Part shown: piece by piece, positions 1,799-63,989 of the stretch | Layout of the letters: every line of letters begins with the position of its first letter | Position numbering within the stretch: the stretch's first letter is position 1 | IMG/VR virus record: IMGVR_UViG_3300021519_001244 | Span: 1,749 to 65,748 of that record | Direction: 5' to 3' (one strand) | Length of the DNA stretch: 64,000 nt | Source of the DNA: a virus | Taxonomy: Duplodnaviria > Caudoviricetes | Made by a program: the position numbers and the translations under genes | The notes under the pieces: generated by a model | The model's input: only the letters and a program-made list of their open reading frames with translations | What the model was told of the DNA's origin: nothing | Database searches by the model: none

Positions 1799-2031
1799 GT
1801 AAACTTTATCTGACCCGACGTAATTTGCTGACACTACTGTCGAAGCTTGACCGCAAGAAAGCAGGCGATGATACCGCTTGCACTATCGTCAAGTATAAAA
1901 ACCCACAAAAAGAGTTTCAACAAACAATGAACTCTTGCGCCATTACAGCCGTAGAAGACGATGAATATTATACTGCACTCAACCGTCATGCTGGAGAAGT
2001 ACACCCACTTGACGAAATGAAACTTGGATAA
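1795..2031 (+). CDS. hypothetical protein
   Basis: ATGA and TAATG overlaps with neighbours; GAGG SD. Confidence 0.65.
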   Translation: MSKLYLTRRNLLTLLSKLDRKKAGDDTACTIVKYKNPQKEFQQTMNSCAITAVEDDEYYTALNRHAGEVHPLDEMKLG

Positions 2032-3341
2032 TGCTATCAAAGTCATTTTGCTCCAGCCCGTGGTATCATATACGTCTAACATATAATGGTGATTTCAGCG
2101 AATGCCGTTGGTACAAGGATGAAAAGCCCCGCCCCATAAACATAGAAAAAACATCTATGTTGGAGTTTTATAATAGCGATCGTATGCGGCAATTGCGATC
2201 AGCATTGCTTAATGGCCAAAGTGCGCCTGGTTGTGCCAGTTGCTATTACGAAGATGAGTTTGGGAAGTTAAGCGGTCGTACTAGACAGCTACTTAAGAGC
2301 GGTGTTCAAGTTGACGATTTTGATCGAACTATGCGTAGTAGTCCGCACTACCAACGATTCCTTCACAGCTATCAAAATTTAGGTCATGGAGATTACCATC
2401 CTGTTGACTTGCAAATAGATCTCGGTAACGTATGTAACAGCGCCTGTATAATGTGTGACCCAGTATCCAGTAGTCGGTTGCATACAGACTATATAAAATT
2501 GCATAAAATCAATTCTACACTATTTGAAAACCCATCTAAGTATACATCGTGGACGCAAAATCCAGATACTCTTGAACGCTTTATTGCAGAGTTAATTGCA
2601 ATACCCAATCTCAAATATATACATTTCCTTGGTGGTGAAACCCTTTACGATGAAGCATTCTACACTATTTGCGATCGTCTTGTTGCCTCGGGTATATCTA
2701 AGAATATTATTATAGGGACCACTACAAACGGCACCATACACAATAATCGTATAGACAATTTAATTTCCCAGTTTAAAGAATTCCATTTGGGTATCAGTAT
2801 AGAAGCAGTTTCAAGTCTAAATGACTATGTACGTTATCCAGGCAAGATTGATCCAATACTAAGCAACATAGATAAATTTTTAGCATTGCGTAGTTCAACA
2901 GGACTTTACGTGTCCCTACGCATAACCCCAAATATTTTTACTATATCGGAAATAGACCAATTGTTTGAATACATGATTGAAAAGAACGTTATTGCCGAGA
3001 GCTGTAACATTCTGTTCAAGCCCGAGTGTTTGCGAATCGAACTTTTACCGGAAAGTATTCGCCAACAAACTATAGACAAATTGGACCAATTGATTGTAAA
3101 ATACAAACTTACTAAAACAAGTGACAATAATATACGCAAAGCAGATGCAATAGCAGACGTGATTGGTAATGTGGTCATTGACTATCAGCAATTCCTTACT
3201 ACCTATGCCATACCAAAAAACGTAGATATACTTAGACAACAATTAGTGATATTTTTAAAGAGCTTTGAGTCCCTTAGAAATAATTCAATATTAGATCATG
3301 CCCCAAACTACACAGAATTTCTTAGACATTACGGATACTAG
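2031..3341 (+). CDS. radical SAM protein with N-terminal twitch/SPASM-like Cys domain
   Basis: CNSACIMC (CxxxCxxC), FLGGET, TTTNGT; N-terminal FCSSPW...GCASCY. Confidence 0.85.
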   Translation: MLSKSFCSSPWYHIRLTYNGDFSECRWYKDEKPRPINIEKTSMLEFYNSDRMRQLRSALLNGQSAPGCASCYYEDEFGKLSGRTRQLLKSGVQVDDFDRTMRSSPHYQRFLHSYQNLGHGDYHPVDLQIDLGNVCNSACIMCDPVSSSRLHTDYIKLHKINSTLFENPSKYTSWTQNPDTLERFIAELIAIPNLKYIHFLGGETLYDEAFYTICDRLVASGISKNIIIGTTTNGTIHNNRIDNLISQFKEFHLGISIEAVSSLNDYVRYPGKIDPILSNIDKFLALRSSTGLYVSLRITPNIFTISEIDQLFEYMIEKNVIAESCNILFKPECLRIELLPESIRQQTIDKLDQLIVKYKLTKTSDNNIRKADAIADVIGNVVIDYQQFLTTYAIPKNVDILRQQLVIFLKSFESLRNNSILDHAPNYTEFLRHYGY

Positions 3342-6848: not shown

Positions 6849-6851
6849 TAT

Positions 6852-8123
6852 ATGATAGCCAATACCAGTATTACTTCGTATAGCACACTATCAGCTAATC
6901 CAGCTGCCAGTATCTTAGATTATATAAATGGGACCAATGTTACTCCCACTATTATTTCAACTGCTTATAATATTCCCAGCAACACAGCATCCAATGTAAA
7001 AGTTGGTATCATTAGTCTAGGCGGAGGGTGGCAACCGAGCGACTTACAAAAATCACTGGGTAATTTAAGCGTGACACTTGCTCGGTCTATCACAAGCGTT
7101 TTGGTAGATGGCGCCGGCAACGTGTTCAGCATAAGCGACAGTAACGCCAGTTTAGAAAATACGTTAGATTTATATTGTGTGGCCGGCATGGCTCCCAGTG
7201 CAAATATTGTTTTATACACTGGACAGAATTCTGTAATGGGTTTTGCTAACGTAATCAACCGCGCAATAAATGAAAATTGTGATATTATCAGTGTAAGTTG
7301 GGGTCTTGATGAATATTATAATACGTATGGAACTTTTTTAGAAACAGCCTTTGCCAATGCAGCCACACAAGGTATCACTGTTTGTGTTGCTAGTGGTGAT
7401 TATGGATCATCAAGCGGAAGTACGCCAAGGGTCCTTTCGGTTGGATATCCAGCTGCCAGTCCAAATGTTGTGGCTGTTGGTGGCACAGTATTAACATATA
7501 ATACTTCATCATATTCTAGAGTTACAGAGTCGGTCTCTAGTTTATCGGGCGGAGGCATAAGCACGGTATTTTCTGTGCCAAGTTGGCAAACAGGACTAAC
7601 ATATCAAAAATATTTTACATCTAATTCGTCATATGGACCATCTACCGCTTTAACTGGGAGAGGTGTACCGGACGTATCAGCACCGTATCAGACATATCCA
7701 CTATGGTACAATGGTACTATTGCCAGCGTTTCCGGAACCAGCGCATCTGCACCAATCATAGCAGGTATGTTTGCTAGGTACATGTCAATGAATGGCGGCC
7801 GGCGGCCTGTTATCAATGGTATACACCCAATATTGTATTCCAACATTAATGCTTATTCTGATTTAACAACAGGTACCAATGCTGATCCGTTACCCGCTGG
7901 ATATGCGGCAAACATTGGGTGGGATCCAGTAGTTGGTATGGGAGCCCCAATTGGAACCGTGCTATACCCAATGATAACATCAGGTGGCACTAAAATTAAA
8001 ACTGCGGCAAATACGTGGTCCTATGTATCTAACGTACGGGTAAAAACTGGATCAACAACGTGGAGTAATGTAAAAGCCGTTTGGACCAAGGTAAATTCAA
8101 CTACCTGGAAGCAAACGTTTTAG
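6852..8123 (+). CDS. sedolisin (peptidase S53) with Trp-rich C-terminal extension
   Basis: ENTLD (Glu/Asp), SVSWG, ASGDYG, YPAASPNVVAVGGT, RGVPDVS, GTSASAP (Ser), GWDPVVGMG. Confidence 0.9.
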   Translation: MIANTSITSYSTLSANPAASILDYINGTNVTPTIISTAYNIPSNTASNVKVGIISLGGGWQPSDLQKSLGNLSVTLARSITSVLVDGAGNVFSISDSNASLENTLDLYCVAGMAPSANIVLYTGQNSVMGFANVINRAINENCDIISVSWGLDEYYNTYGTFLETAFANAATQGITVCVASGDYGSSSGSTPRVLSVGYPAASPNVVAVGGTVLTYNTSSYSRVTESVSSLSGGGISTVFSVPSWQTGLTYQKYFTSNSSYGPSTALTGRGVPDVSAPYQTYPLWYNGTIASVSGTSASAPIIAGMFARYMSMNGGRRPVINGIHPILYSNINAYSDLTTGTNADPLPAGYAANIGWDPVVGMGAPIGTVLYPMITSGGTKIKTAANTWSYVSNVRVKTGSTTWSNVKAVWTKVNSTTWKQTF

Positions 8124-8167
8124 CTTTGCTATCTGATAAATAACACTAATATCTGAGGAATTTAACA

Positions 8168-8482
8168 ATGTCTTTTAACGCAAATATCGTAAACATACTT
8201 AATTACAATAGTATTCAGAGTGCTGTAATTCCTAGCACACGGGCCCGGGTTTTGGCCAATATAACTTTACATTATTCGGTTGGCGTAAACCCAACCGCAT
8301 ACACGGGTAATTGTGAATTAATACCAGCAGGCGTTGTTAGATATATTAACATGGAAGGCACCAATAACAAACTTGCTTTTATTGCCAGCTCAACTGGTGT
8401 TGGCGAAGTCAGTATTGTTCCATGTGGTACCGTACTTAAATCTGGTACAGTAACCAGTTCCGACACATATATTCCTACCTAA
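8168..8482 (+). CDS. hypothetical protein (likely late/virion)
   Basis: TAAATA and GAGGA upstream. Confidence 0.65.
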   Translation: MSFNANIVNILNYNSIQSAVIPSTRARVLANITLHYSVGVNPTAYTGNCELIPAGVVRYINMEGTNNKLAFIASSTGVGEVSIVPCGTVLKSGTVTSSDTYIPT

Positions 8483-21191: not shown

Positions 21192-22178
21192 TTGAAAAAA
21201 TTATTGGCTATGTTATTGGTAACACTGGCTGTATCGGCACAGGCACAACCAGTTATTAACGGAGCAGGCGCAACTTTCCCAGCACCAGTTTACAGTAAAT
21301 GGGCTGGAGAGTATCACAGAGAAACTGGCATCAAAATTAACTATCAAGCAATTGGATCTGGTGGCGGCATAAAACAAATTGAAGCAAAGACTGTAGATTT
21401 TGGCGCATCAGATGATCCAATGTCAGCGGATGAGGTGAAAGCAAAAGGGTACTATCAATTTCCAGCAGTCATTGGCGGCGTAGTTCCTGTTATTAACGTT
21501 AAAGGGATTGAGCCCGGACAGTTAGTTTTAGACGGCAAAACATTAGCAGATATTTTTCAAGGCAAAATTACTAACTGGAATGATCCTGCTATTAAGAAAC
21601 TAAATCCTAAACTAGCATTGCCAGATCTGGCACTGACCAGGGTAGTCCGTGCAGATGCCAGTGGCACTACAGCAGTATTTACAGACTACCTATGTCAAGT
21701 AAGTGAAGACTTTAAAACTGTAATTGGTACTAATAAAACAATTAGTTGGAAAACTGGTAATACAACAGCAGGTAAAGGCAATGCTGGTGTTGCAGCGTTT
21801 GTGCAACAAATACAAGGTACAATTGGTTATGTAGAATATGCTTATGTTAAACAAGCAAAGATGACATACGTTGGTATGCTTAATCGAGGTAAAGTAGTAC
21901 ATCCAGATGACACTACATTTGCTGAAGCCGCCCAAGGTGTAAATTGGAACATACCAGGAATGGCAGTTAACTTAAATAATCAAAGTAAAGGTTGGCCAAT
22001 TACTTCTGCAACTTTTGTAATTATATACAAAGGAAGCGATAAGTCAGATCCTGTAATTAAGTTCTACGATTGGGCATTTAGTAAAGGTGACAAACTAGCA
22101 TTAGAATTAGACTATGTTCCATTGCCATCGGCGGTGAAAGCACAGATACGTAAAGACTGGAAAACGCTGGGTTACTAG
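21192..22178 (+). CDS. pstS: phosphate ABC transporter substrate-binding protein
   Basis: GAGATFPAP, YQAIGSGGG, VDFGASD, RADASGTT, GKGNAGV, IGYVE, WPIT. Confidence 0.95.
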   Translation: MKKLLAMLLVTLAVSAQAQPVINGAGATFPAPVYSKWAGEYHRETGIKINYQAIGSGGGIKQIEAKTVDFGASDDPMSADEVKAKGYYQFPAVIGGVVPVINVKGIEPGQLVLDGKTLADIFQGKITNWNDPAIKKLNPKLALPDLALTRVVRADASGTTAVFTDYLCQVSEDFKTVIGTNKTISWKTGNTTAGKGNAGVAAFVQQIQGTIGYVEYAYVKQAKMTYVGMLNRGKVVHPDDTTFAEAAQGVNWNIPGMAVNLNNQSKGWPITSATFVIIYKGSDKSDPVIKFYDWAFSKGDKLALELDYVPLPSAVKAQIRKDWKTLGY

Positions 22179-22938: not shown

Positions 22939-24954
22939 ATGCTGAAAAAAATCCTAACAAGTCCGTGGACTGCCCTAATTACATTAGCACTTATATTAAG
23001 TATAAGAATTGCCGATCCTGTCTTTGTAGAAAGTATAAGATTACGCTATTTTGATACCTTAGTAACAAGTAAAGCATCAGAAACAATTGGTGTGAGCATA
23101 GTAAACATTGATGAGAAATCATTGGAAAAATATGGTCAATTCCCGTTCCCCCGCGATATATACGGATCCATTATTCGGGATCTTTATCGTCGTAATGCTG
23201 GCCTTGTGGTGTTTAACATTCTTACTCCAGATCGCGATCGACTTGGAAAAGACTCGGAATATGTTCGAGCATTAAAACAATTCCCAACAATATTACCAAG
23301 CATTGGCTCCACTGCAACACGAAACAATCCTCGAGCCCCGGGTAGTGCTGTAATTGGAAGTTTTAATCAAGATGCATTTATACAATATCCCGGAATTATT
23401 GCTAACTTACCAGCAGTTGAAAATGCAGCCGCGGGCGTTGGTATTACAAATACGTTGCCCGAGGTAGATGGTGTTGTACGCAGAATGCCTTTGATAATAG
23501 CGCACGATGGTAAATTATATCCCAGCCTGGCAATGGAAACATTACGTGTTGCGGGCGCCGACTCAACGGTGCAGATTAAAGTTAATGCCAACGGCGTTGA
23601 GAAAATGCGTATTCCAAAGTTTGGTCCAGTTACTACAGATAGTTTATCCCGTATATGGATTGACTGGAGTTTAGAACCAACAAAATATAGTTTAACAGAT
23701 TTACCCAAGGACTTTAGGGGTGAAATTGTTATCGTTGGTGTAAGCGCACAAGGATTGAGTAATCCAGTGGCAACAAGCAAAGGTGAGCTGTTACCGCAGG
23801 AATTGCAAGCGGCAGTATTAGGTACAGTAATAGCCAATAAAGATAGATCGGTTATTACAAGGCCGGACTGGGCCGACGGAGCAGAAATGTTGGCGTTGGT
23901 AGTTATAGGAATAGTTTTACTTTTTTTAACAAGGTGGACTTATGTTGGAATTGTTTCCGGTGCTTTGGTTATTGGTGGTTTGTACCCTGCTAGTCAGTAT
24001 TTGTATTCGAACAATAGCTGGTTGGTTGATATTACTATCCTTATCAGCGGCCTTATATTGGTTATGCTTCATGCATACGGTGTTAAGTTCGTAAGTGAGT
24101 TTTTACAAAAGCAACAGATAAAGAAACAATTTGGTACATACCTAAGCCCAGACTTAGTGGCGCAGTTACAGCGACAGCCAGAACTATTGCAGTTAGGTGG
24201 CGACAGTCGTGAACTATCAATCATGTTTACAGACGTTCGTGGCTTTACAAGTATTAGTGAGCACTACGGTGCCGATGTACAAGGCCTTACTAAGATCATG
24301 AATCGCTATATGACTGCAATGACTAAGAAGATCCTGGAAAACAAGGGTACTCTTGATAAGTACATTGGTGATGCACAAATGGCATTTTGGAATGCGCCGT
24401 TGATAGATGCCAATCACGCTAAAAATGCTGTAAGAACAGCATTACAGATGATGGAGTCGTTAGATGAGTTTAATAAAGAAGTTGTGGCAGAAGGAGTACC
24501 ACCTTTTGGAATGGGCCTTGGCATTAACACAGGCGTTGTTGTCGTTGGTAACATGGGTAGCGATCAACGCTTTGACTATACTTGCTTGGGTGATAGTGTT
24601 AATCTTGCAAGTCGCCTCGAAGGGCAATCGAAAAATTATGGAGTTCGTATTGTACTTGGGCCAGAAACAGCAAAGCAGGTGCAGGATGAATATCCAGTCT
24701 TTGAAATGGACTGTATCGCAGTTAAAGGAAAAAAAGAAGGTGTAAGAATTTTTACTCTGTCTGAACAGACACAGGCACAAAACGTTTTCTTATATTGGTA
24801 CTATGAAGGTGTGTGGGAAGATGCATTACGTATTGCTAAACAAGAAGTAAAGAATAATAAAGAAATGTCCCATTACTACGAGCTAATGGTTGAGAGATTA
24901 GAAGAAGGAAAACCCAATGACTGGCACGGTACCTACGTTGCAACTTCTAAATAA
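22939..24954 (+). CDS. CHASE2-domain class III adenylate cyclase
   Basis: IVNIDEKSL..GQFPFPR, DGVVRR, three TM helices, FTDVRGFT, LDKYIGDA, GINTG..VVGNMG, YTCLGDSVNLASRLEG. Confidence 0.92.
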   Translation: MLKKILTSPWTALITLALILSIRIADPVFVESIRLRYFDTLVTSKASETIGVSIVNIDEKSLEKYGQFPFPRDIYGSIIRDLYRRNAGLVVFNILTPDRDRLGKDSEYVRALKQFPTILPSIGSTATRNNPRAPGSAVIGSFNQDAFIQYPGIIANLPAVENAAAGVGITNTLPEVDGVVRRMPLIIAHDGKLYPSLAMETLRVAGADSTVQIKVNANGVEKMRIPKFGPVTTDSLSRIWIDWSLEPTKYSLTDLPKDFRGEIVIVGVSAQGLSNPVATSKGELLPQELQAAVLGTVIANKDRSVITRPDWADGAEMLALVVIGIVLLFLTRWTYVGIVSGALVIGGLYPASQYLYSNNSWLVDITILISGLILVMLHAYGVKFVSEFLQKQQIKKQFGTYLSPDLVAQLQRQPELLQLGGDSRELSIMFTDVRGFTSISEHYGADVQGLTKIMNRYMTAMTKKILENKGTLDKYIGDAQMAFWNAPLIDANHAKNAVRTALQMMESLDEFNKEVVAEGVPPFGMGLGINTGVVVVGNMGSDQRFDYTCLGDSVNLASRLEGQSKNYGVRIVLGPETAKQVQDEYPVFEMDCIAVKGKKEGVRIFTLSEQTQAQNVFLYWYYEGVWEDALRIAKQEVKNNKEMSHYYELMVERLEEGKPNDWHGTYVATSK

Positions 24955-54452: not shown

Positions 54453-55175
54453 ATGAAGAAATTACTATTAGCAGTATTATTGGTCACTGGTATTACTACA
54501 GCCCAAGCACAGGTATCAGGCAATTTAGGATTAACAAGTGACTATCGTTTCCGCGGTATTAGCCAAAGTCAAAATGCACCAGCAGTACAAGGTGGTGTTG
54601 ATTACGCTCACTCAAGCGGTTTCTATGTTGGTAACTGGAACAGTTCAGTAAGCTCATCTGTTCACACAAACGGTTCTGGCGTTGAGAGCGATCTCTATGC
54701 TGGTTGGAAGAAAGATATTTACAAGGGCCTGACTCTTGATGTTGGTTCTTATAACTATTTTTACCCACGTGCTACCGCTGCAAGCACAGGCTCAAACTTT
54801 GACACATACGAAGGTTTTGCAGGTCTAGGTTATGGTCCGGTTAGCGTTAAGTACAGCCGTACACTAGGTAATGGTTATTTTGGTACAGCTAATGCTCAAG
54901 GTACACAATACTACCAAGCTGATGTAAACTATCCAATCGCTGGATCAAAGATTAGTTTGCTTGCTCACGCAGGTAAGACTAATGTTGCGAATCAAAGCAC
55001 AGGTGATTACAACGATTATAACTTTGGCGTTGGTTACGACTTAAAGGGCTGGAATTTAGCCGCTAAGTATTACACAAACACATCGTTAACAACTGCCGCT
55101 AAAACAGCAAATACAATCAATAGTCAAAAATTGTATAAGAATGCCGCTGTATTATCAGTAAGCAAATCATTCTAA
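54453..55175 (+). CDS. TorF-family (TIGR02001-like) outer-membrane beta-barrel
   Basis: Signal peptide; TSDYRFRGISQS..PAVQGGVDY-HSSGFYVGNW-S, ESDLYAG, C-terminal VSKSF. Confidence 0.88.
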   Translation: MKKLLLAVLLVTGITTAQAQVSGNLGLTSDYRFRGISQSQNAPAVQGGVDYAHSSGFYVGNWNSSVSSSVHTNGSGVESDLYAGWKKDIYKGLTLDVGSYNYFYPRATAASTGSNFDTYEGFAGLGYGPVSVKYSRTLGNGYFGTANAQGTQYYQADVNYPIAGSKISLLAHAGKTNVANQSTGDYNDYNFGVGYDLKGWNLAAKYYTNTSLTTAAKTANTINSQKLYKNAAVLSVSKSF

Positions 55176-55195: not shown

Positions 55196-55220
55196 AAAAG
55201 CCCACTTTGGTGGGCTTTTT
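55196..55220 (+). terminator. intrinsic terminator
   Basis: AAAAGCCCAC-TTTG-GTGGGCTTTTT; same hairpin at 61120. Confidence 0.85.
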
Positions 55221-55289
55221 CTTGACTTTTGATTACAGCATAGCGTATACTGAGTAGGTATAAATACAAGATAACAGAGTAAAGAAAAT

Positions 55290-55964
55290 ATGACCTTACC
55301 AGTAAGCGGAGCAATTAGCCTTAGCCAAGTTTCAGTTGAAGTAGGACAAGCATCTACTTATTCTGCATCATTAAACTGGGTTAAATCTATAACCAAAGAT
55401 AGTGTTAGCAATATGAATGCATTGCATGGTCGTTCGTACTATCAAAGTTCCATGGATGGCAACTGTAACAATGGTAATTGCGACTCAGCTGTTGGCGGCG
55501 GCAATATAAATTGTGTAAATTGTAGTTTAACTACAGTTAATTGTGCAAATTGCGACGCCCAATCATGGTTGCAAGCTGGTACAAACTGCGCCTGTACTTA
55601 TAACTGCGATCAGCACACAGATCAAGCGTACAACTGTAACTGCAATTGTAATTGTAATTGTGCATGTTTTTGGTCTGATGATACGCTTAAAGATCGCCAA
55701 GGCGAAATTGTTAATGCGTTGGATATCATTTGCGAATTAACAGGGTTTTATTATACTGGTAATAATAAAGCAAGACAACTTGGCCTAAATCCAAAACTTG
55801 ATGTTGGAGTTAGTGCCCAAGATATAGAACGAGTGTTCCCTGTGGCGGCTGGCGACCCATTACCGGGAAGTGGTGTAAAAACTGTACGATATGAACGTTT
55901 AGTTCCGTTACTGCTCGAAGCTGTAAAATCATTAAATCAAAAAATTGATCAACTCAAAAAATAA
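55290..55964 (+). CDS. Asn-Cys-rich protein with C-terminal peptidase S74 intramolecular chaperone domain
   Basis: 15 Cys in aa 59-126; WSDDTLK, NAL-II-L-G-Y, VGVSAQDIE-VFP, V-YERLVPLL-EAVK-L coiled coil; TAAATA upstream. Confidence 0.85.
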   Translation: MTLPVSGAISLSQVSVEVGQASTYSASLNWVKSITKDSVSNMNALHGRSYYQSSMDGNCNNGNCDSAVGGGNINCVNCSLTTVNCANCDAQSWLQAGTNCACTYNCDQHTDQAYNCNCNCNCNCACFWSDDTLKDRQGEIVNALDIICELTGFYYTGNNKARQLGLNPKLDVGVSAQDIERVFPVAAGDPLPGSGVKTVRYERLVPLLLEAVKSLNQKIDQLKK

Positions 55965-55972
55965 GGCCCAAT

Positions 55973-57418
55973 ATGCTGTTTGAAGTTCATGCTGAACGAA
56001 ACTCTGAAGACAAAAAAATATTTTATTATGATAACGAAACAAATACGTTGTCTGATGCTAACAATAATATATTCGAATACCCCGTTGAACAAATTATAAA
56101 CAAAGAACTTGATATTGTAACTAGAGCATTTTCTAAAGAAGATCCGTTACGTAAGTCCACTAAAATTAGTACGTTAAAGATTCAAATGGGTTTGTCTTGC
56201 AATTATTCGTGCGACTATTGTTCGCAAAAGTTTGTTGAACGGCCTCCAGAAACAAATAGAAAAGACATTGATGATTTCTTGGCAAAATTGGAAGTGTTGG
56301 AATTTAACGAAGCCACTGGATTAAAGATTGAATTTTGGGGAGGTGAGCCATTTGTATATTGGAAAACTCTCAAACCATTGGCTGAAGCGTTAGTTGAAAA
56401 ATTTAGCACATGGAAAACAAAGCCGAGACTAAGTGTCATAACAAACGGATCGTTGTTAACCAGAGAAATTTGCTCGTGGTTGTACTATATGGGATTCAGT
56501 GTAGGCATTAGTCACGACGGGCCGGGGCAAAGTGTACGTGGACCTGATCCTTTCTTAGATCCTGAGAAGAAAAAAATAGTATTAGAGTTTTATAACATTA
56601 TGCGACAAGTTAATCGCATAAGTTTTAACTCAATGTTGAATAATAAAAATACCAGTCGAAAAGCCGTATACGAGTGGTTTGTAGAGTTTACCGGAGACCC
56701 AAACGTTGTTGTCGGGGAAGGCTCAATTGTTGATGCATATGACGAAGACGGGTCAAATAGTTCACTAGATACACTAAACGAACATTTTGCATACAGACAG
56801 TTATCATTTAATGATATGTATTCTACAAATGGCCAAATTGGGTTTATAAATATCAAAGACAAAGTCAATGGGTTTGTGCGTAGCGTATTGACGCACAAAA
56901 AATCAGAAGGGCTAGGCCAGAAGTGCGGCATGGACGATGAGCATACTATTGCCATAGATCTTAAGGGCAATGTTGTCACTTGCCAAAATGTTAGTGTAAT
57001 GGAAACCAGTAAGAATGGTGAAAGCCACCTAGGTGGCAACTTAGCTGAGTATGATGCAGTAGAACTTAAATCTGTTACGCATTGGAAAAATAGAGCAAAC
57101 TGTTCTGGTTGTCCAGTACTGCATCTGTGCAAAGGCGCATGTATGTATCTAGACGGCAAGTACTGGGACATCACTTGTAATAATGCTTACTCCGACAACA
57201 TTCCATTATTTGCCTTGGGCTTTGAAAAAATTACCGGATACATTCCAACACTAATTAAAGGTGACGGACTTCCGCTAGAGCGCCAAGATATATGGGGTAC
57301 CATATATGAGCATAAAGAAAAAGCTAAAAAGAAACTGATACCCATTAAAGTTGTAAATGAAAAGATTGCTGTCATTGACGACGTGGAAGTATACGGGCAG
57401 TCAAGAATAGGAGAATAA
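55973..57418 (+). CDS. radical SAM/SPASM-domain protein
   Basis: CNYSCDYC, FWGGEP, ITNGS, ISHDG; KCG, TCQ, CSGCPVLHLCKGAC-x10-C. Confidence 0.92.
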   Translation: MLFEVHAERNSEDKKIFYYDNETNTLSDANNNIFEYPVEQIINKELDIVTRAFSKEDPLRKSTKISTLKIQMGLSCNYSCDYCSQKFVERPPETNRKDIDDFLAKLEVLEFNEATGLKIEFWGGEPFVYWKTLKPLAEALVEKFSTWKTKPRLSVITNGSLLTREICSWLYYMGFSVGISHDGPGQSVRGPDPFLDPEKKKIVLEFYNIMRQVNRISFNSMLNNKNTSRKAVYEWFVEFTGDPNVVVGEGSIVDAYDEDGSNSSLDTLNEHFAYRQLSFNDMYSTNGQIGFINIKDKVNGFVRSVLTHKKSEGLGQKCGMDDEHTIAIDLKGNVVTCQNVSVMETSKNGESHLGGNLAEYDAVELKSVTHWKNRANCSGCPVLHLCKGACMYLDGKYWDITCNNAYSDNIPLFALGFEKITGYIPTLIKGDGLPLERQDIWGTIYEHKEKAKKKLIPIKVVNEKIAVIDDVEVYGQSRIGE

Positions 57419-57420
57419 CA

Positions 57421-58074
57421 ATGTGGACCACAACGTTAAAATTAGAAGAATTTATAAACACATCTAAGAAACATGCCGAGATAGTTAATATTACTGCACA
57501 GGCGCCCACAGACTTAATGTTGGCCCAAATTTCTGATGCGTATACTTTTGCCGAGATCCCGACACATTTTACATTTACCGTCAAAGACTCCGATGGAGTA
57601 TCACGTGAATTAAGCATACTAGTTCCAAGTGAGGTTTGGCAAAAGATGGAAATACCCGTTACGGAATTAGTCAAGGCCGCTAATAGATTTAAAGTTGCCC
57701 CAATTATATACACACATTTTATAAGACCCGATATCGTTGATGGTTGTGAATTATATGGATGCCTTATTAATCCAATGCTCGCCCCTCCGGAGCCACTTGC
57801 AAAATTACTCAATGAACTAAAAGTTTTACCCCGTGTTATAGATGCAAAAGCCTTTAATATAGTGGACCCGGCTCAGTTAGCGGCTGCTGGGTGTAATGAG
57901 GCTGTGCGAATTTTCCTTGAACTGGATATTATTACCGAAGCCAGGCTAGATCAATACGATGATAGTATATTTGATCGTCATGATTTCTTAGTTCCAAGTA
58001 TTGGTTATATGAGCGAAGAAGCGCACGAGCATATTATTAATACCGCAAAAGAATATTTAAATAATATAAAATAA
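57421..58074 (+). CDS. hypothetical protein in the radical SAM operon
   Basis: AGGAG SD; abuts both neighbours. Confidence 0.7.
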   Translation: MWTTTLKLEEFINTSKKHAEIVNITAQAPTDLMLAQISDAYTFAEIPTHFTFTVKDSDGVSRELSILVPSEVWQKMEIPVTELVKAANRFKVAPIIYTHFIRPDIVDGCELYGCLINPMLAPPEPLAKLLNELKVLPRVIDAKAFNIVDPAQLAAAGCNEAVRIFLELDIITEARLDQYDDSIFDRHDFLVPSIGYMSEEAHEHIINTAKEYLNNIK

Positions 58075-58701
58075 ATGATCAAACAGTTAAACAATTTGTT
58101 TAGCACACCGTTTTGGACCTTTGACTTTCATAAAGACAATCCACAATTGGCTAAAACCGTCCAGATGGATGGACTTACCTTTAGTAAATATGTTACAGAC
58201 AAAAAAGCCAAAAACGAAACACCTACAAATATTCGTTATGATTTCTTTAATCACATTGGGTACGGTATCAGTGGACTACGCGAGAACACAACAAACGCAA
58301 TAATCGAAGTTGCAAAAGATCAACAGTGGACAGACTACACAGTTGATATACGTGCCAGACAAAATGTAATTTTCCCGGGACAATGCGATACCCCTCATCA
58401 TCATCAAGGATTAGATTTAATTGGTGTGTATTACGTTACTGTTCCAGAAAATAGTGGTGACATATTGTTATTTGAAACCAGGGGCAGTATTAACCGTTTA
58501 TGGGAAGATCCAATGGTAACTCCCGATTCGATGGGCCGCACAGGCAGAGTTTATTACAGGCATAAGCCACAAGTTGGTACATTGATAATGTTCCCTAGTT
58601 ATCTATTCCATGCAGTTGAAACAAATTTAAGCAACGAAAATAGAATTTCTATTGTGATGGATATACGGATAAACAAGGAATACGACGACGTATATGTTTA
58701 A
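58075..58701 (+). CDS. 2OG-Fe(II) oxygenase (TIGR02466-like)
   Basis: PHHH, GVYYV-VPENSGDI, P..GTLIMFPSYLFHAV..N..RISI. Confidence 0.85.
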   Translation: MIKQLNNLFSTPFWTFDFHKDNPQLAKTVQMDGLTFSKYVTDKKAKNETPTNIRYDFFNHIGYGISGLRENTTNAIIEVAKDQQWTDYTVDIRARQNVIFPGQCDTPHHHQGLDLIGVYYVTVPENSGDILLFETRGSINRLWEDPMVTPDSMGRTGRVYYRHKPQVGTLIMFPSYLFHAVETNLSNENRISIVMDIRINKEYDDVYV

Positions 58702-59848
58702 ATATGTAATAGTCGGGGGCGGAACTGCAGGTTGGTTAACTGCGCTATTTGTCAAAGAAAAATTCCCATACAGCGACGTCACAGTAATAGCAAGCTCTGA
58801 AATTGGCATACTTGGTGCTGGTGAAGGGACTACCCCACCGTTCATAAACTTTTTAGCAAAAATAAAAATTAACCCAGACGAAATTATATCCAACTGCCTT
58901 GGTACAGTAAAGACTGGCATTAAGTTTACTAACTGGTGTGGCGACACCAAACACTATTATCACAACTTCTTAGCCGACACACGGCAAGGAGACTCGGCTC
59001 TGCACTTTGATGCAAACTTGTTGGCAAAGTATTTGCAAACAGTTGGAATTAAACGTGGTATTAAACTAGTTGATAACGAAGTAACTGATGTATGTGCCGA
59101 CTCCAATAACAATATAACAAGTCTTATACTTAAAGATAAAACGTCTATAGACCTAGACTTTGTATTTGATTGCTCGGGCTTTCGACGATTAATAATTGGC
59201 AAGCATTATAACGCTAAATGGACATCGTACAAAAAAATATTACCCGTCGACCGTGCTATGCCATTCTTTCTTCAAAACGATAATACCAACCTTCCTGTAT
59301 ATACAGAAGCGATAGCACTTAGACATGGATGGATGTGGAAGATACCAGTACAAGGAAGATACGGATGTGGTTACGTGTTTGATAGCGGTCGTGCCACAGA
59401 CAGCGAAATTAAAGAAGAAATAGAAGAACATCTAGGACACGAGATTGTTAGTCCACGTATGTTTAGTTTTGATGCTGGATGCTTTGAAGATACCTGGATT
59501 AACAATTGCGTGGCAATTGGATTAAGTTCGGGATTTTCAGAACCACTTGAAGCCACTAGCATATGGGTACAAACAACTAGTCTGACTTTCTTGCTTAAAA
59601 ATATCAACGGAATAATACTAACAGACACTGATGCAAAGCGTAGATACAACGATGCTGTAAAAACTATGAATTTAGAAATAGCAAAATTTTTACATTTTCA
59701 TTATCTAACTAACAGACAGGATAGTGATTTCTGGAGAAGTTTTGAAGTACCAAATGTATTTAATATGCATAGCAGCGGAGAACTACTCACGTTTGCAGAA
59801 TACAATTGGGAAACAATACAAAAAGGGATTGGATATGGTAACCGTTGA
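58694..59848 (+). CDS. tryptophan-halogenase-like flavin-dependent enzyme
   Basis: GGGTAGW, GAGEGT, K in TVKTGI, FDCSGF, GWMWKIP (WxWxIP), GLSSGFSEPLEATSI. Confidence 0.88.
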   Translation: MFKYVIVGGGTAGWLTALFVKEKFPYSDVTVIASSEIGILGAGEGTTPPFINFLAKIKINPDEIISNCLGTVKTGIKFTNWCGDTKHYYHNFLADTRQGDSALHFDANLLAKYLQTVGIKRGIKLVDNEVTDVCADSNNNITSLILKDKTSIDLDFVFDCSGFRRLIIGKHYNAKWTSYKKILPVDRAMPFFLQNDNTNLPVYTEAIALRHGWMWKIPVQGRYGCGYVFDSGRATDSEIKEEIEEHLGHEIVSPRMFSFDAGCFEDTWINNCVAIGLSSGFSEPLEATSIWVQTTSLTFLLKNINGIILTDTDAKRRYNDAVKTMNLEIAKFLHFHYLTNRQDSDFWRSFEVPNVFNMHSSGELLTFAEYNWETIQKGIGYGNR

Positions 59849-60461
59849 TGCGTTTGGACATTGTATAGTTTTATCACATTGTGATAATAGTGACTACTAT
59901 ATCAACGATGATGTTATATCCGCAGTAGATAAAATTTTTGCATTACCCGAAGTACAGAATAGAGAGCGCGGCGCAGACTGGGATAGCCACCATGGAGAAG
60001 GCGAAACATCTGAGGTTAATCCTTATCTTGGACCAGCACATATACCGGGTGCAAGTAAGTTAGTACAATGGATTAAGTCCAGTTGTATTCGTGCATTGTC
60101 CGCATACAATATTACAGGAAACGACGTTGAAATCACGCGGTCTTGGATGAATCGAATGAACCAAGGTAGCCAAGGTAGATGTCATATACATACAGGAAAG
60201 GATATTTTAGGCCTAGAAGAATCACCGGACCTTGTTGCTATTTTTTATGTAAACAACCCAGACAACGGGTCAAAGTTAGTAATAGTCAAAGATGGTATCG
60301 CTGGTACATTGCCATCGGATATGCCAGAATCAGACAAAATATACATAACGCCATCAACCGGAGATTTAATCATACATCGCCCAGATGTATGGCATGCTGT
60401 CAGTGAGCATAAAAATCCGGACCCTAGAATTTGTTTTGTGTTCCAATTACGCAAAATATGA
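59835..60461 (+). CDS. 2OG-Fe(II) oxygenase (TIGR02466-like)
   Basis: SWMN, CHIH, IFYV, GDLII-..WHAV, RICFVF; likely start 59835. Confidence 0.8.
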
Positions 60462-60558
60462 GTCTGGGCAGATTAAATTTGACTATATTAGGGTATTATC
60501 GTATACTATACCAAGTATACAGTTAAATACTATTTTAAAAGAAGGAAGTACAGTAATT

Positions 60559-60762
60559 ATGGCAACAGGTAAAGTTAAGTGGTTTAATGATGCAAAAGGT
60601 TTTGGATTTATTACACCTGATGGTGGTGGTGAAGATTTGTTTGCACATTTCTCAGCAATCAACAGCAGTGGATTTAAGTCACTGAAAGAAAATCAGCAAG
60701 TTACGTTTGATGTAACACAAGGCCCAAAAGGCAAACAAGCGTCAAATATTCAACCTCAGTAA
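60559..60762 (+). CDS. cold-shock protein (CspA family)
   Basis: [33 protein letters not shown]. Confidence 0.96.
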
Positions 60763-60764
60763 GG

Positions 60765-61118
60765 TTGTAAAGAATTGTTGTAATTCCTTCGTAGTGAAGG
60801 CATCTTGGACGCGGGGGCAGTACCCGCCCAGTCCACCAGAGAGTATATTATGATGTAATCTGAAGCCCAAACTAATCAAAATCGATAGATTATGATGAGG
60901 GCGGAACTTGTGTGTTGATAGCCTAACGGCAGGAGCCAAGATAATATACTCCCTAATGGGCTGGAAATAGTTTCGACAGGGTGAGATAGCGAAAGAGGCA
61001 ACACAGTAGGCGATGACTGTAAATCAAGCAAAATTATAACTGCAAACGATGAGTTATTCGCTTTAGCCGCTTAATACCGGCTTGCTGAGGTAGGGATACC
61101 AATAAACAGAAACTTCCA
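60765..61118 (+). ncRNA. ssrA: permuted (two-piece) tmRNA gene
   Basis: Acceptor piece ends CCAGTCC-ACCA at 60838; coding piece starts GGGCTGG-AAATAGTTTCGAC at 60958 (7-bp acceptor stem with G3.U70); tag 61042-61074 is ANDELFALAA*; outer ends approximate. Confidence 0.9.
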
Positions 61119-61119
61119 G

Positions 61120-61146
61120 AAAGCCCACTTTGGTGGGCTTTCTTTT
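61120..61146 (+). terminator. intrinsic terminator
   Basis: AAAGCCCAC-TTTG-GTGGGCTTT-CTTTT. Confidence 0.8.
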
Positions 61147-62106: not shown

Positions 62107-62163
62107 CACCTTATTGCTGGTAAATTCTCTTTAAGAATCAACGACTTACGTAGCCTATATTTC

Positions 62164-62220
62164 GGTTGTCCAATAAATCCATTTCCTGTATAATATACAC
62201 TTACACTAGCGAAACGGAGA
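62164..62220 (+). promoter_or_regulatory. early promoter/RBS cassette, family B
   Basis: TTGTCC-17-TATAAT...ACACTAGCGAAACGGAGA; identical to 62903..62959. Confidence 0.85.
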
Positions 62221-62226
62221 CAGCAA

Positions 62227-62382
62227 ATGAACAAGAAAATTCAAAGATTACAGAAGTTGGCTCTCAAAGAAACTCAAAGACTTATCGCTCATCATAGTGA
62301 ACACCGAACTGCCCGTGTTGTGCGTGACAAGTTCGAGGAAGCACTGGCTCTCAAAGAAACTCAAAGACTTATCGCTCATTGA
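62227..62382 (+). CDS. small hypothetical protein (51 aa) with internal duplication
   Basis: 35-bp direct repeat 62258-62292 / 62345-62379 encoding LALKETQRLIAH twice. Confidence 0.5.
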   Translation: MNKKIQRLQKLALKETQRLIAHHSEHRTARVVRDKFEEALALKETQRLIAH

Positions 62383-62450
62383 GGGGATTGACCCCCAAGC
62401 GAATGCAGGTGATTGGATGTGCTAATTGGAGAATATGCAGGAATAAAATT

Positions 62451-62508
62451 GGTTGACTTCTGGTCTGATCCTGTGTATAATACACACTTACACTAGCAAA
62501 ACGGAGAA
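62451..62508 (+). promoter_or_regulatory. early promoter/RBS cassette (variant)
   Basis: TTGACT-17-TATAAT then ACACTTACACTAGCAAAACGGAGA. Confidence 0.8.
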
Positions 62509-62513
62509 GCAAA

Positions 62514-62873
62514 ATGTATACAGCAAAAGTGGGTGACATGGTTGGTTACTTTCGTGTTGGTGGCACTGGTGGACACATGATGGGCGTGGGTTACGGCACG
62601 GTAACCAAAATCAACGGTCACGGTCATTACCACCTTGACACTGGTAAAGTGTTTGACAAGCATGGCAACGAGCGTGGTACCAATTATGGTGTTTGCCTGG
62701 TTAATGCAGAATATCTCCGTGAGCGTGTGGCCAAAGAACAAGCCCGTCAAGACAAAGCCGCAATGGTACGCAGCCTGATCCAGAAGCTGGAAGGCAGTTT
62801 TTCCTACTCCGGAACGGTGCATATTGATGGCGATGCCAAGCAGGAATTGCTGGCTATGGTGAATAGCCTTTAA
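62514..62873 (+). CDS. hypothetical early protein
   Basis: Follows cassette RBS. Confidence 0.75.
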   Translation: MYTAKVGDMVGYFRVGGTGGHMMGVGYGTVTKINGHGHYHLDTGKVFDKHGNERGTNYGVCLVNAEYLRERVAKEQARQDKAAMVRSLIQKLEGSFSYSGTVHIDGDAKQELLAMVNSL

Positions 62874-62902
62874 TAATCAATGACTTACAGCACCTGTATT
62901 TC

Positions 62903-62959
62903 GGTTGTCCAATAAATCCATTTCCTGTATAATATACACTTACACTAGCGAAACGGAGA
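62903..62959 (+). promoter_or_regulatory. early promoter/RBS cassette, family B
   Basis: Identical to 62164..62220. Confidence 0.85.
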
Positions 62960-62964
62960 AACAA

Positions 62965-63234
62965 ATGCTTACAGTTAAACAAGTTCGTGCGGTATTGGAA
63001 GGTCATGCGGACACGATTGGTAAAAACAAAGACGGCCATATCGTTGTGCGTAAAGGCTTCTTTTATACCAACGGAATGGATGCTGAGCAATTTGCCCAAG
63101 TGGTGCTGGCGCGATTAACGCGGTCGGGTATTGCGGCCCGTTTGGTAGACGCCAATTGCATTTGGAAAGCCTTCCGGGGTGGTGCTAGTGTAGCACAAGG
63201 CAGTCACTTTAAAGTGGTTTTGGTTGCCCAATAA
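62965..63234 (+). CDS. hypothetical early protein
   Basis: ATG 62965 follows GGAG; WKAFRGGASVAQGSHF-V. Confidence 0.75.
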   Translation: MLTVKQVRAVLEGHADTIGKNKDGHIVVRKGFFYTNGMDAEQFAQVVLARLTRSGIAARLVDANCIWKAFRGGASVAQGSHFKVVLVAQ

Positions 63235-63278
63235 ATCCATTTGCCGTATAATATACACTTACACTAGCGAAACGGAGA
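63222..63278 (+). promoter_or_regulatory. early promoter/RBS cassette, family B
   Basis: TTGCCC-17-TATAAT...ACACTAGCGAAACGGAGA. Confidence 0.85.
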
Positions 63279-63284
63279 AACAAA

Positions 63285-63989
63285 ATGCATACATTCCGAA
63301 CCCGTCAAGTCACTCCGCAAGTCCCAGCAATGCCAGGCATGACCCCCCTGGGTTTCCGCCCAGCTCGCAAGGCGGTGCAAGCCAACCCTGACCAAGTGGG
63401 TGCCATTGCGGCATTGGGCCAGGCCTTGCCCCAGCTGAGCAACAGCGACAGCCAGTTTGCCGCCAGCCTGTTACAGAACTTCAACCGGTATGGCAACCTG
63501 AGCGACAAGCAGATGCACTGGGTTAACACCTTAACTGCTCGTGCGGCGGCTCCCCGGCCGGCTCCAGTGGTATTGGTTACTGTGAACTTCCAACCCATAC
63601 AGGACCTGTTTGACAAAGCCGCACAGAAGCTGAAACGCATCCGGGTTAAACTGCAAACCACTGACGGCCAACCGGTTGTTATCGGCCGCGCCGGCCCCAT
63701 GAGCAAGTATACAGGGCAGATCCTGATCACAGACGGCGGTCCGTTTGGCGATAACAAGTTCTTTGGCCGCATTGACGTCACAGGCGAGTTCTTTGCTACT
63801 CGTAGTGCTACCACTGAAGTGTGCAATTTGGTGAAACAGTTTAGCGAAGACCCGGCCGGGTCAGCAGCACAATACGGCAAGCTCACAGGCGGTTGCAGTT
63901 TCTGCAAGCATGGGTTGACTGACAACCGTAGCCTGGCAGTGGGGTATGGCCCGGTTTGTGCTAAGAACTTTGGCTTGGTGTGGGGTTAA
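63285..63989 (+). CDS. DUF6011-like zinc-finger protein
   Basis: LSDKQ..W; C-terminal CSFC-..LTD..S...GYGPVCA. Confidence 0.75.
   Translation: MHTFRTRQVTPQVPAMPGMTPLGFRPARKAVQANPDQVGAIAALGQALPQLSNSDSQFAASLLQNFNRYGNLSDKQMHWVNTLTARAAAPRPAPVVLVTVNFQPIQDLFDKAAQKLKRIRVKLQTTDGQPVVIGRAGPMSKYTGQILITDGGPFGDNKFFGRIDVTGEFFATRSATTEVCNLVKQFSEDPAGSAAQYGKLTGGCSFCKHGLTDNRSLAVGYGPVCAKNFGLVWG

Follow-up and report, generated by a model that had tools for sequence, protein, structure and literature searches.

What does a phage do with a small protein that is rich in Asn-Cys pairs and encoded next to a radical SAM/SPASM enzyme (rSAM)? The question is raised by a unit of six genes at positions 55290-60461 of the analysed stretch of 64,000 nucleotides (the window). 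The genes lie on a 65.7-kb IMG/VR virus contig with an estimated completeness of 19%, a jumbo-phage fragment from a large freshwater phage. The tight operon of the original prediction is borne out by the ORF listing: six closely packed ORFs run on the + strand, as do all features described below. In the best overall explanation, which is moderately probable, the rSAM acts on the gene 1 product, two oxygenases, a peptidase S74 domain and a halogenase follow, and the product becomes part of the virion. If true, peptide-antibiotic chemistry would have been brought to a virus protein. Literature searches found no phage description of an Asn-Cys protein paired with an rSAM.

A terminator-like hairpin (55196..55219; a 10-pair stem, then a T run) lies 3' of the upstream Gcw_chp gene. 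A sigma-70-like promoter match (TTGACT, 18 nt, TATACT; 55222..55251) is found 5' of gene 1; it is a consensus match only, and the total of such sites in the region is not above that in shuffles. A similar site is present at 60479-60507, 5' of the next gene.

Gene 1 and its Asn-Cys core

Gene 1 (55290..55964) encodes 224 aa starting with MTLPVSGAISLSQV; the ORF and profile matches divide it into an N-terminal domain, an Asn-Cys core and an S74 follower. A total of 377 relatives were found in the protein collection at E≤1e-5. Residues 1-55 (55290..55454; MTLPxSGxI...) form a small domain, conserved across 45 relatives and folded in the structure model (pLDDT 73-90 across residues 1-50), which may serve in enzyme docking or fibre attachment.

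The core, delimited by Cys count and conservation (residues 57-128; 55458..55673), is the presumed substrate region and has Phe-Trp at its end. Its predicted Cys content stands: residues 59-126 (68 residues) contain 15 Cys, 13 of them as Asn-Cys. C59, C106, C116 and C118 are invariant among gene 1 relatives. Residues 115-126 (55632..55667) are an (Asn-Cys)5-Ala-Cys tract, NCNCNCNCNCAC. Ser129 had been placed immediately after this tract, which is wrong, as Phe127-Trp128 intervene. Among + strand ORFs of at least 60 aa in the 64-kb window, gene 1 alone packs 6 or more Cys into 20 residues. The X of X-Cys tracts is Asn in 38%, Ala in 35% and Asp in 20% of 197 positions; to our knowledge, Ala, at 35%, has not been described as a ranthionine acceptor.

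The radical SAM/SPASM enzyme

The rSAM (481 aa; 55973..57418) was identified by profile matches, conservation and a structure model. It matches Radical_SAM PF04055 with 35.7 bits and SPASM TIGR04085 with 34 bits (vs 27). The CxxxCxxC cluster motif (Cys76, Cys80, Cys83; 56198..56221) is invariant in 24 sequences, and the SPASM region (56924..57178), located by profile and the same 24-sequence conservation, has seven invariant Cys (318, 337, 377, 380, 386, 390, 402). The same seven-Cys arrangement is described for CrpC, where it is said to leave one iron free to bind a substrate Cys (Dieter et al., PMC13692751). The best-scoring named family is PapB (73 bits vs a cut-off of 340, residues 64-392), and the enzyme is far under all curated family cut-offs (QhpD 65 vs 453, TIGR04463 49.5 vs 525, anSME 43.6 vs 349 bits). 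A search of its N-terminus for a RiPP recognition element (RRE), proposed as a check in the original prediction, found no canonical one: the structure model shows three strands and no helix there.

The nearest solved folds are chains of the sulfatase maturase anSME (TM 0.52 by query, 0.66 by target), which oxidises Cys and forms no cross-links. Weak hits include the cyclophane-forming families YhhB, AmcB, GrrM and FxsB and the epimerase YydG. The enzyme could modify the tract without thioethers, by oxidising Cys to formylglycine like anSME, by epimerising residues, or by forming carbon-carbon bonds with the conserved Tyr/Trp. This is unlikely: by sequence PapB is the best family, and the first auxiliary-cluster site has one Cys, as in the thioether synthase CteB, whereas anSME has more; the auxiliary-cluster Cys count is that of CteB/CrpC. 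Moreover, the tract does not contain the C/S-x-P/A-x-R motif of anSME.

Co-occurrence of enzyme and Cys tract

Relatives of the rSAM were found in 134 viral stretches, of which the best 80 were kept for counts. Among these best 80 of 134, 51 loci contain an ORF with at least four X-Cys repeats, 66 contain a Cys-dense ORF (6 or more Cys within 20 aa) on the + strand, and 66 give a tblastn match to gene 1. As a control, the minus strand carries 10 such Cys-dense ORFs in the whole 886 kb of the same 80 loci. Further loci (L074, L077, L083) were judged by eye to have short (NC)2-3 C-terminal tails, and two of the best 80 of 134 show no partner: L073 and, with its rSAM placed at the end of the contig, L068. 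In the reverse direction, a DNA pattern for NCNCNCNC matched 80 loci, 44 of which have the tract at most 12 residues from the end of an ORF of at least 60 aa. The rSAM clade is encoded on the same strand in 33 of these 44, and where C-terminal NCNCNCNC genes have at least 4 kb downstream, it is nearby in 20 of 21 cases. Co-occurrence therefore runs both ways, and the rSAM clade does not commonly occur without a Cys-rich neighbour, the finding that the original prediction had named as speaking against it. This pairing strongly supports gene 1 as the candidate substrate of the enzyme.

A dedicated SPASM enzyme accompanying the tract in nearly every assessable case would be superfluous for metal binding alone, and the named SPASM relatives in the profile search are all peptide or protein modifiers. 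Both points argue against a tract that serves a trimeric needle as its metal- or Fe-S-binding core and lacks covalent cross-links, with the rSAM otherwise employed or using the tract as a cluster scaffold. The T4 long-fibre tip (gp37), with its iron-binding His-x-His ladder, would be a parallel to such a core. It would also suit the alternating X-Cys pattern, which sets all thiols on one strand face, the strictly terminal placement of the tract beside trimerising followers, and the pLDDT below 50 with which the core is modelled without ligands. Overall it seems quite improbable.

The S74 follower and the mature C-terminus

Residues 129-224 (55674..55961) are a peptidase S74 intramolecular-chaperone domain with Ser129 and Lys134, matched by PF13884 over residues 129-185 (29.1 bits vs a cut-off of 22). 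Ser129, Asp130 and Lys134 are invariant among 42 S74-type relatives. A trimer model passes: ipSAE is 0.88, whereas the highest of 3 controls scores 0.00, partner pLDDT is 65 or more, and runs share at least 52% of contacts. The interface is confined to residues 125-223. Among proteins with solved structures, 20 of 30 pairs and 1 of 23 single chains reach the tool's mark; since S74 trimers have already been solved, the pass may reflect memorised structures. Relatives without a follower stop exactly at the predicted S74 cleavage point. Together, the invariant residues, the model and these bare ends fit the self-removing follower that had been proposed.

The tract is always found at the end of the mature protein: relatives stop there or go on to S74, Hint or an unnamed follower. 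The ends of 45 non-redundant relatives are bare with Trp (14), otherwise bare (8), S74-fused (2), Hint-fused (2) or followed by a 'SKIIC' follower (19). These ends and the co-occurrence of a halogenase mark Trp128 (55671..55673) as a candidate halogenase target and as the residue predicted to end the mature protein.

Location of the product

Only relatives point to the virion. In Achromobacter phage JWF, the tail fibre gp028, two genes 5' of the JWF rSAM, ends in NCNCDCNCNCSC, then a Hint domain, and the same tract terminates long fibres in many viral loci. A separate S74-ended fibre ORF (334-785 aa) is present at most 3 kb upstream of 8 of 83 non-redundant relatives, in 3 of those 8 with a 4-nt gap, and is absent nearby in 75. 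The unit itself is flanked by a porin-like Gcw_chp gene and csp/tmRNA, with no tail module around it in the 64-kb window. Other auxiliary genes nearby are a PstS-like gene and a cyclase. For this unit, the virion appendage of the original prediction is inferred from the relatives.

The auxiliary surroundings, the unit's own promoter-like site in the window and an N-domain that could serve as a leader would suit a released or host-directed modified protein (bacteriocin-like, signalling or metal-scavenging) made by an auxiliary unit of a jumbo phage. This rates as rather improbable, as the PHROGs matched are tail proteins without exception, known S74 domains belong to fibres and spikes, relatives lie directly after fibre genes, the tract terminates long fibres, and the unit contains no export or leader-protease gene.

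Oxygenases, halogenase and the terminal Trp

Two 2OG-Fe(II) oxygenases were identified by profile matches: the first (58075..58701; PF13759, TIGR02466) has relatives in 47 of the best 80 of 134 loci, the second (59835..60461) in 19. Their 2OG-FeII_Oxy_5 matches are 63.1 and 34.5 bits, respectively (cut-off 27). The second ORF opens at GTG 59724, but its start is likely ATG 59835, from which relatives align. The 217-aa protein at 57421..58074 has no known family in Pfam, PHROGs or NCBIfam. Its relatives occur in only 4 of the best 80 of 134 loci.

The flavin-dependent halogenase homologue (58694..59848; profile and alignment) gives a Trp_halogenase match of 312 bits. It keeps the flavin motif, GWMWKIP and a Lys that takes the place of the catalytic Lys in alignments with solved enzymes; at 384 aa (vs 497-550 aa in solved Trp halogenases) it lacks their C-terminal module. 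Relatives occur in 21 of the best 80 of 134 loci. A halogenase accompanies all 17 assessable relatives with a mature Trp end and none of the 48 without, an apparent link that is a new point. On the rSAM tree, however, it involves only 2 changes (1-2 independent pairs; sign test p 1) and traces to only about two evolutionary events. Distant exceptions were also found: in L071 and L072 a halogenase homologue of 32-33% identity lies next to a fibre that ends ...NCSC, a tail in L247 ends ...CCGW with no halogenase within 7 kb, and Pelagibacter phage HTVC008M has an oxygenase-halogenase pair between terminase genes, with no match to the unit's rSAM.

Proposed mechanism

Most likely, the rSAM, the two oxygenases and the halogenase chemically modify the gene 1 product. 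Steps, order and virion location can be proposed as follows. The rSAM would act on the Asn/Asp/Ala-Cys ladder, most likely abstracting H from a neighbouring residue and joining the Cys sulfur to that carbon, with thioethers of the ranthionine or sactionine kind as the likeliest cross-links. The oxygenases probably hydroxylate side chains in the same core. The S74 domain would trimerise the protein and cleave itself off between Trp128 and Ser129, leaving a mature protein of 128 residues ending ...NCNCACFW. The truncated halogenase, without a pocket for free tryptophan, may then act on the terminal Trp. The product would most likely be a small virion protein located at the fibre tip or otherwise associated with the fibre.

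Comparison with known systems

The S74 chaperones of endosialidases and phage fibres resemble that of gene 1 in the Pfam match over cut-off, Ser and Lys at the first and sixth positions and the predicted trimer. Known S74 domains follow a long fibre or spike, whereas this one follows a 128-residue Cys-rich protein and is swapped in relatives for Hint, an unnamed domain or nothing.

Among characterised systems, CrpC/CrpA and QhpD/QhpC/QhpG come nearest. CrpC of Methanococcus voltae introduces thioether (ranthionine) cross-links into a Cys-rich protein, not a short peptide (Dieter et al. 2026, PMC13692751). The enzyme likewise has seven SPASM Cys, and the N-terminal domain of its Cys-rich substrate aids binding (PMC13692751). 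CrpC/CrpA is, however, archaeal and cellular, CrpC has a predicted RRE where the unit's rSAM shows none in its model, the TIGR04463 score of the latter is 49.5 vs a cut-off of 525, and the CrpC/CrpA system lacks the self-cleaving follower, halogenase and oxygenases of the viral unit.

As proposed here, an rSAM/SPASM enzyme of the quinohaemoprotein amine dehydrogenase system cross-links Cys, there to Asp/Glu in the small subunit. Further processing of this subunit consists of Trp modification by a flavoprotein and trimming by a protease. Weak matches exist in the unit for QhpD and for QhpG (E 3.9e-6 for the flavoenzyme), but both score far under their cut-offs (240 for QhpG), and the flavoenzyme is a clear Trp_halogenase member. 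The dehydrogenase partner subunits are absent from the unit, and its context is viral.

NxxcB links Cys to Asn. PapB links Cys to the carbon next to an Asp/Glu carboxylate, and also to a C-terminal carboxylate (PMC12373016). In the X-Cys tracts, Asn and Asp together account for 57% of X positions. PapA and NxxcA are short leader-core peptides in which the motifs (CxxxD, NxxC) are spaced, in contrast to an X-Cys ladder on a folded protein, and the unit's rSAM, low-scoring against PapB, has no canonical RRE.

MibH halogenates Trp in a thioether peptide (a lanthipeptide). VirX1 is a viral halogenase with a large open site, for which no natural product is listed (PMC8407142). The unit's halogenase shares their family and catalytic motifs but is 384 aa, vs 531 aa for VirX1 (match 164 bits), and differs from both in its proposed substrate, the candidate C-terminal Trp of a phage protein.

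Genomic setting of the unit

The unit comprises six genes on the plus strand (55290-60461) with intergenic gaps of -14 to +8 bases. It is bounded upstream by a terminator-like hairpin (55196-55219), which precedes a TTGACT-18-TATACT site (55222-55251) 5' of gene 1, and downstream, after gene 6, by a promoter-like TTGACT-17-TATACT site (60479-60507). The unit is present in a single copy in the 65.7-kb IMG/VR virus record, and a search with its whole DNA gave no match among isolated phages. The CheckV completeness of the record is 19% at this length, and the window is therefore a piece of a jumbo phage.

On its 5' side the unit adjoins a Gcw_chp porin-like gene, and on its 3' side a cold-shock-like gene and a tmRNA. 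The Gcw_chp gene (54453-55175; PF09694, 173 bits), immediately 5' of the unit, encodes an outer-membrane-type protein with a signal-peptide-like start. Close to the site at 60479-60507 there is a small ORF (60559-60762) that by eye looks like a CspA-type cold-shock protein. The tmRNA follows the unit and this ORF (60727-61145; RF01850, 164.8 bits); it is permuted and two-piece, with the tag ANDELFALAA. Because it is of the betaproteobacterial type, its sequence points to a betaproteobacterial host for the phage.

Elsewhere in the window are an RNA ligase, nucleases, a PstS-like phosphate-binding protein (21192-22178) and a CHASE2 sensor-adenylate/guanylate cyclase fusion (22939-24954). A second radical SAM gene (2031-3341; phrog_14086, E 4e-10) is unrelated to gene 2. 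A 48-nt element, GTATAATA...ACGGAGA...ATG, occurs in four copies at 62118-63293, each 5' of a small gene, and combines a -10 box, a leader and a ribosome site. Across the last 2 kb of the window, where these copies lie, G+C rises to 0.48.

Gene 1 and its relatives

Gene 1 (55290-55964, plus strand) encodes a protein of 224 aa in which an Asn-Cys core is followed by a peptidase S74 domain. Between residues 59 and 126 the core has 15 Cys, of which 13 occur as Asn-Cys, and it ends with NCNCNCNCNCAC-Phe-Trp. The S74 domain starts at Ser129. The original prediction describes the unit correctly, except that Ser129 does not follow the tract (the (X-Cys)n run closing the core) immediately, as Phe-Trp lies in between. 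PF13884 matches residues 129-185 with 29.1 bits (cut-off 22), and S129, D130 and K134 are invariant across 42 aligned S74-type relatives. Ser129 and Lys134 are presumably the catalytic Ser-Lys dyad of S74 at its cleavage site. A cut between Trp128 and Ser129 would leave a C-terminal end of the same kind as in relatives that carry no follower (the domain after the tract). Judged from sequence, the architecture of N-domain, core and putative self-cleaving follower fits the plan of a RiPP-type precursor.

A monomer prediction for gene 1 left its core unmodelled. The three-copy model reached an ipSAE of 0.88 (0.00 for the best of three controls), a pass that may reflect the S74 trimers already solved. 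Its pLDDT is at least 65 and its contact agreement at least 52%, and the confident interface comprises residues 125-223 only. The mark applied was reached by 20 of 30 proteins solved as pairs and by 1 of 23 single chains.

At E<=1e-5 gene 1 has 377 relatives in the protein collection; of the 120 that were listed, we read about 60 as S74-type. The N-domain and Asn-Cys core are common to 45 non-redundant small relatives, and what comes after the core varies. In 14 of the 45 the protein has the bare end ...CACACW, and 8 have other short bare ends. An S74 follower is present in 2, a Hint follower in another 2, and 19 carry an unnamed follower of about 170 aa starting with SKIIC, which matched no Pfam family. 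In every arrangement the Cys tract is the putative mature C-terminus.

The SKIIC follower is the commonest after the Cys tract (L014, 7468-8373, and 18 other non-redundant relatives). It starts with SKIIC(A/T)KL and has a hydrophobic end, and the genes carrying it lie downstream of the rSAM gene, not upstream. Fibres of Burkholderia phage JC1 and Synechococcus phage Sf-FS3 were rejected as relatives: they match through S74 only and have no Cys tract. A long fibre with both tract and S74 was also sought, and the sole match was a 792-aa collagen-repeat fibre with S74 and without the tract. In the long-fibre form of the system (L074, 4626-5360; L002, 4314-5129; and others) fibre and rSAM flank a protein of about 245-270 aa that ends with ...KVKAGFKNFSG...V, belongs to no Pfam family and is absent from the window.

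Co-occurrence of the radical SAM enzyme and the tract

Relatives of gene 2, the radical SAM/SPASM enzyme (rSAM), are encoded by 134 viral stretches, of which the best 80 were analysed. An ORF with at least four X-Cys repeats was found in 51 of these 80 loci, and 66 have a plus-strand ORF in which a 20-residue stretch includes 6 or more Cys; for comparison, the minus strands of the same 886 kb together gave 10 ORFs that reach the latter threshold. Gene 1 is the sole plus-strand ORF of the window to reach it. It also has a tblastn match in 66 of the best 80 loci. By eye, short (NC)2-3 tails were recognised in three further loci. Among the best 80, one locus (L073) has no tract partner for the rSAM, and another (L068) stops at the rSAM.

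In the reverse search, a DNA pattern for NCNCNCNC matched at least 80 loci. Of the 80 listed, 36 were rejected as noise: out-of-frame matches, matches in short ORFs, and repeats of giant viruses. In the other 44, an ORF of at least 60 aa ends no more than 12 residues beyond the tract. The rSAM clade is present on the same strand in 33 of these 44, and in 20 of the 21 that have at least 4 kb downstream, among the matches listed. The pairing of the rSAM clade with a Cys-rich gene, which the original prediction had proposed, thus holds in both directions, and the rSAM is not commonly found alone.

The rSAM is also present in isolated phages: Ralstonia phage RSP15, Achromobacter phages JWF and 2-1 and, more distantly, RP12 and RP31. 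The JWF tail fibre gp028 has the end NCNCDCNCNCSC, then a Hint domain, and the rSAM lies two genes later. In bacterial genomes the clade was detected at 200 bits or more in 42 loci, mostly from Burkholderiales and Alphaproteobacteria according to record titles. A regular expression called a tract in 32 of these; 26 are clear by eye, one (L217) is ambiguous, and those of L234, L236, L240, L243 and L245 were discarded as spurious calls in GC-rich frames. No halogenase was found among the 42 bacterial loci.

Probable chemistry of the radical SAM enzyme

Gene 2 matches PF04055 with 35.7 bits (cut-off 29.5) and the SPASM model TIGR04085 with 34 bits (cut-off 27). The Cys residues of CxxxCxxC (C76, C80, C83) are invariant in 24 rSAM sequences. 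The seven-Cys SPASM motif was tested as CX9-15GX4C ... CX2CX5CX3C ... C, and C318, G332, C337, C377, C380, C386, C390 and C402 are invariant in the same number of sequences. All named NCBIfam matches are peptide or protein maturases, with every score far under its cut-off. The best is PapB (NF047865; residues 64-392, 73 bits, cut-off 340). Assignment to QhpD (TIGR03906; 65.4 bits, cut-off 453) or to the CrpC-type maturases (TIGR04463; 49.5 bits, cut-off 525) was rejected. So was anSME (TIGR03942; 43.6 bits, cut-off 349), although it ranks first in Foldseek for the AF2 model of gene 2 (TM 0.52/0.66), followed by ChlB, TigE and CteB: in profile alignments the first auxiliary-cluster segment of the family has one Cys, as in CteB, whereas anSME has more.

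CrpC puts thioethers on a 29-kDa Cys-rich protein, and its seven-Cys arrangement is described as keeping one iron open to a substrate Cys (Dieter et al., PMC13692751). PapB is reported to join Cys beside Asp/Glu carboxylates, and even to the C-terminal carboxylate (PMC12373016). In the tracts studied here the X residues are Asn (38%), Ala (35%) and Asp (20%). Thioether formation is most likely the chemistry of the rSAM on the tract, because of the CteB-like single Cys, the CrpC precedent, the best match to PapB and the Asn/Asp at X positions.

A PqqD-like winged-helix RiPP recognition element was looked for in the N-terminus of the rSAM and in the product of gene 3 (57421-58074; the 57421 protein), and neither gave evidence of one. 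The rSAM has no canonical element, because its AF2 model (pLDDT 86.7) opens with three strands (2-8, 14-20, 25-28) and lacks any helix ahead of residue 84. No family was assigned to the 57421 protein in Pfam, PHROGs or NCBIfam, and the Atlas gave no usable match for it. As a relative recurs in just 4 of the best 80 of the 134 rSAM loci, the protein was also rejected as a conserved component of the system.

Oxygenases, halogenase and the terminal Trp

The 2OG-Fe(II) oxygenases encoded by genes 4 and 6 match 2OG-FeII_Oxy_5 (PF13759; cut-off 27) with 63.1 and 34.5 bits. For TIGR02466 (cut-off 62.5), gene 4 is over the cut-off with 63.5 bits and gene 6 under it with 27.5.

Gene 5 (58694-59848) matches Trp_halogenase (PF04820) with 312 bits. 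In alignments with solved halogenases it keeps GGGTAG and GWMWKIP, which we take to be the GxGxxG flavin motif and WxWxIP, and the Lys of its GTVKTGIKF falls on their catalytic Lys. The protein is 384 aa long, compared with 497-550 aa in solved Trp halogenases. The C-terminal module for free tryptophan was not found in gene 5, as alignments stop near query residue 351 (chain residues 407-445).

Trp is the putative mature end in 18 of 83 non-redundant relatives of gene 1. A halogenase of at least 40% identity is encoded nearby in 17 of the 18, and the remaining one (L010) has less than 5 kb downstream. None was found at this identity among the 65 relatives without terminal Trp: 47 lack a halogenase on at least 5 kb downstream, 17 lack it on short flanks, and one has a weak flavoprotein match only (20-35%). 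On the rSAM tree (41 rows, seven short-flank rows left out) terminal Trp and halogenase each change only twice, and the link therefore represents one or two events; as an independent correlation it was rejected, and it stands as an observation. More distant exceptions are L071, L072, L247 and Pelagibacter phage HTVC008M.

HTVC008M has, between its small and large terminase genes, an overlapping 2OG oxygenase-halogenase pair (6418-8377) like genes 4-5. Four additional 2OG oxygenases are found near it, and the genome gave no match to the rSAM of the unit. In the table of one review no natural product is given for the viral halogenase VirX1, and its open site is stressed (PMC8407142).

A possible virion role

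The PHROG matches of gene 1 are all tail proteins. In 8 of the 83 relatives a separate S74-ended fibre ORF is found within 3 kb upstream, with a 4-nt gap in three; genes for a fibre and its tip protein are ordered in a similar way. The tail matches and the fibre-adjacent relatives argue for a virion role of the gene 1 product, and the auxiliary-gene neighbours in the window argue against it; from its relatives we infer such a role.

It is possible, though rather unlikely, that gene 1 encodes a phage fibre-tip protein that is covalently laddered. The rSAM would install thioethers on the Asn/Asp-Cys tract, the oxygenases would hydroxylate it, and the self-cleaved follower would expose a C-terminal Trp for halogenation by a minimal viral halogenase. 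Were this so, viral flavin halogenases, or at least those of this clade, would have virion proteins as their natural substrates, and natural-product chemistry would tune host-recognition tips.

If the proposed modification of gene 1 is confirmed, structural or host-binding proteins of phages would join peptide antibiotics and a small number of cellular proteins as targets of radical-SAM cross-linking. The reach of this chemistry would include many freshwater and marine phages and prophages of Burkholderiales and Alphaproteobacteria. With one substrate of 224 aa and four enzymes, the unit would be inexpensive to use as a test system and could help to show how SPASM enzymes treat protein substrates without a recognition element. 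It could also bear on the substrates of viral halogenases and of the abundant phage 2OG oxygenases, and on the reason for self-cleaving followers on fibre tips. Predicting host range solely from fibre sequences could overlook such chemical modification.

Comparison with known systems

In the literature covered, which was largely without subscription journals and supplements, no paper was found that describes a phage fibre or an Asn-Cys tract as the substrate of an rSAM. Phage examples may be included in Supplemental Data set 1 of the study by Dieter et al. (PMC13692751), which is described as cataloguing similar clusters 'across all domains of life'. SPASM maturases of Cys-rich substrates are known as a class. 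What sets this system apart is the viral fibre-like protein as the proposed substrate, the interchangeable putative self-cleaving followers after the tract, and the oxygenase-halogenase set attached to a SPASM enzyme and a Cys-rich protein.
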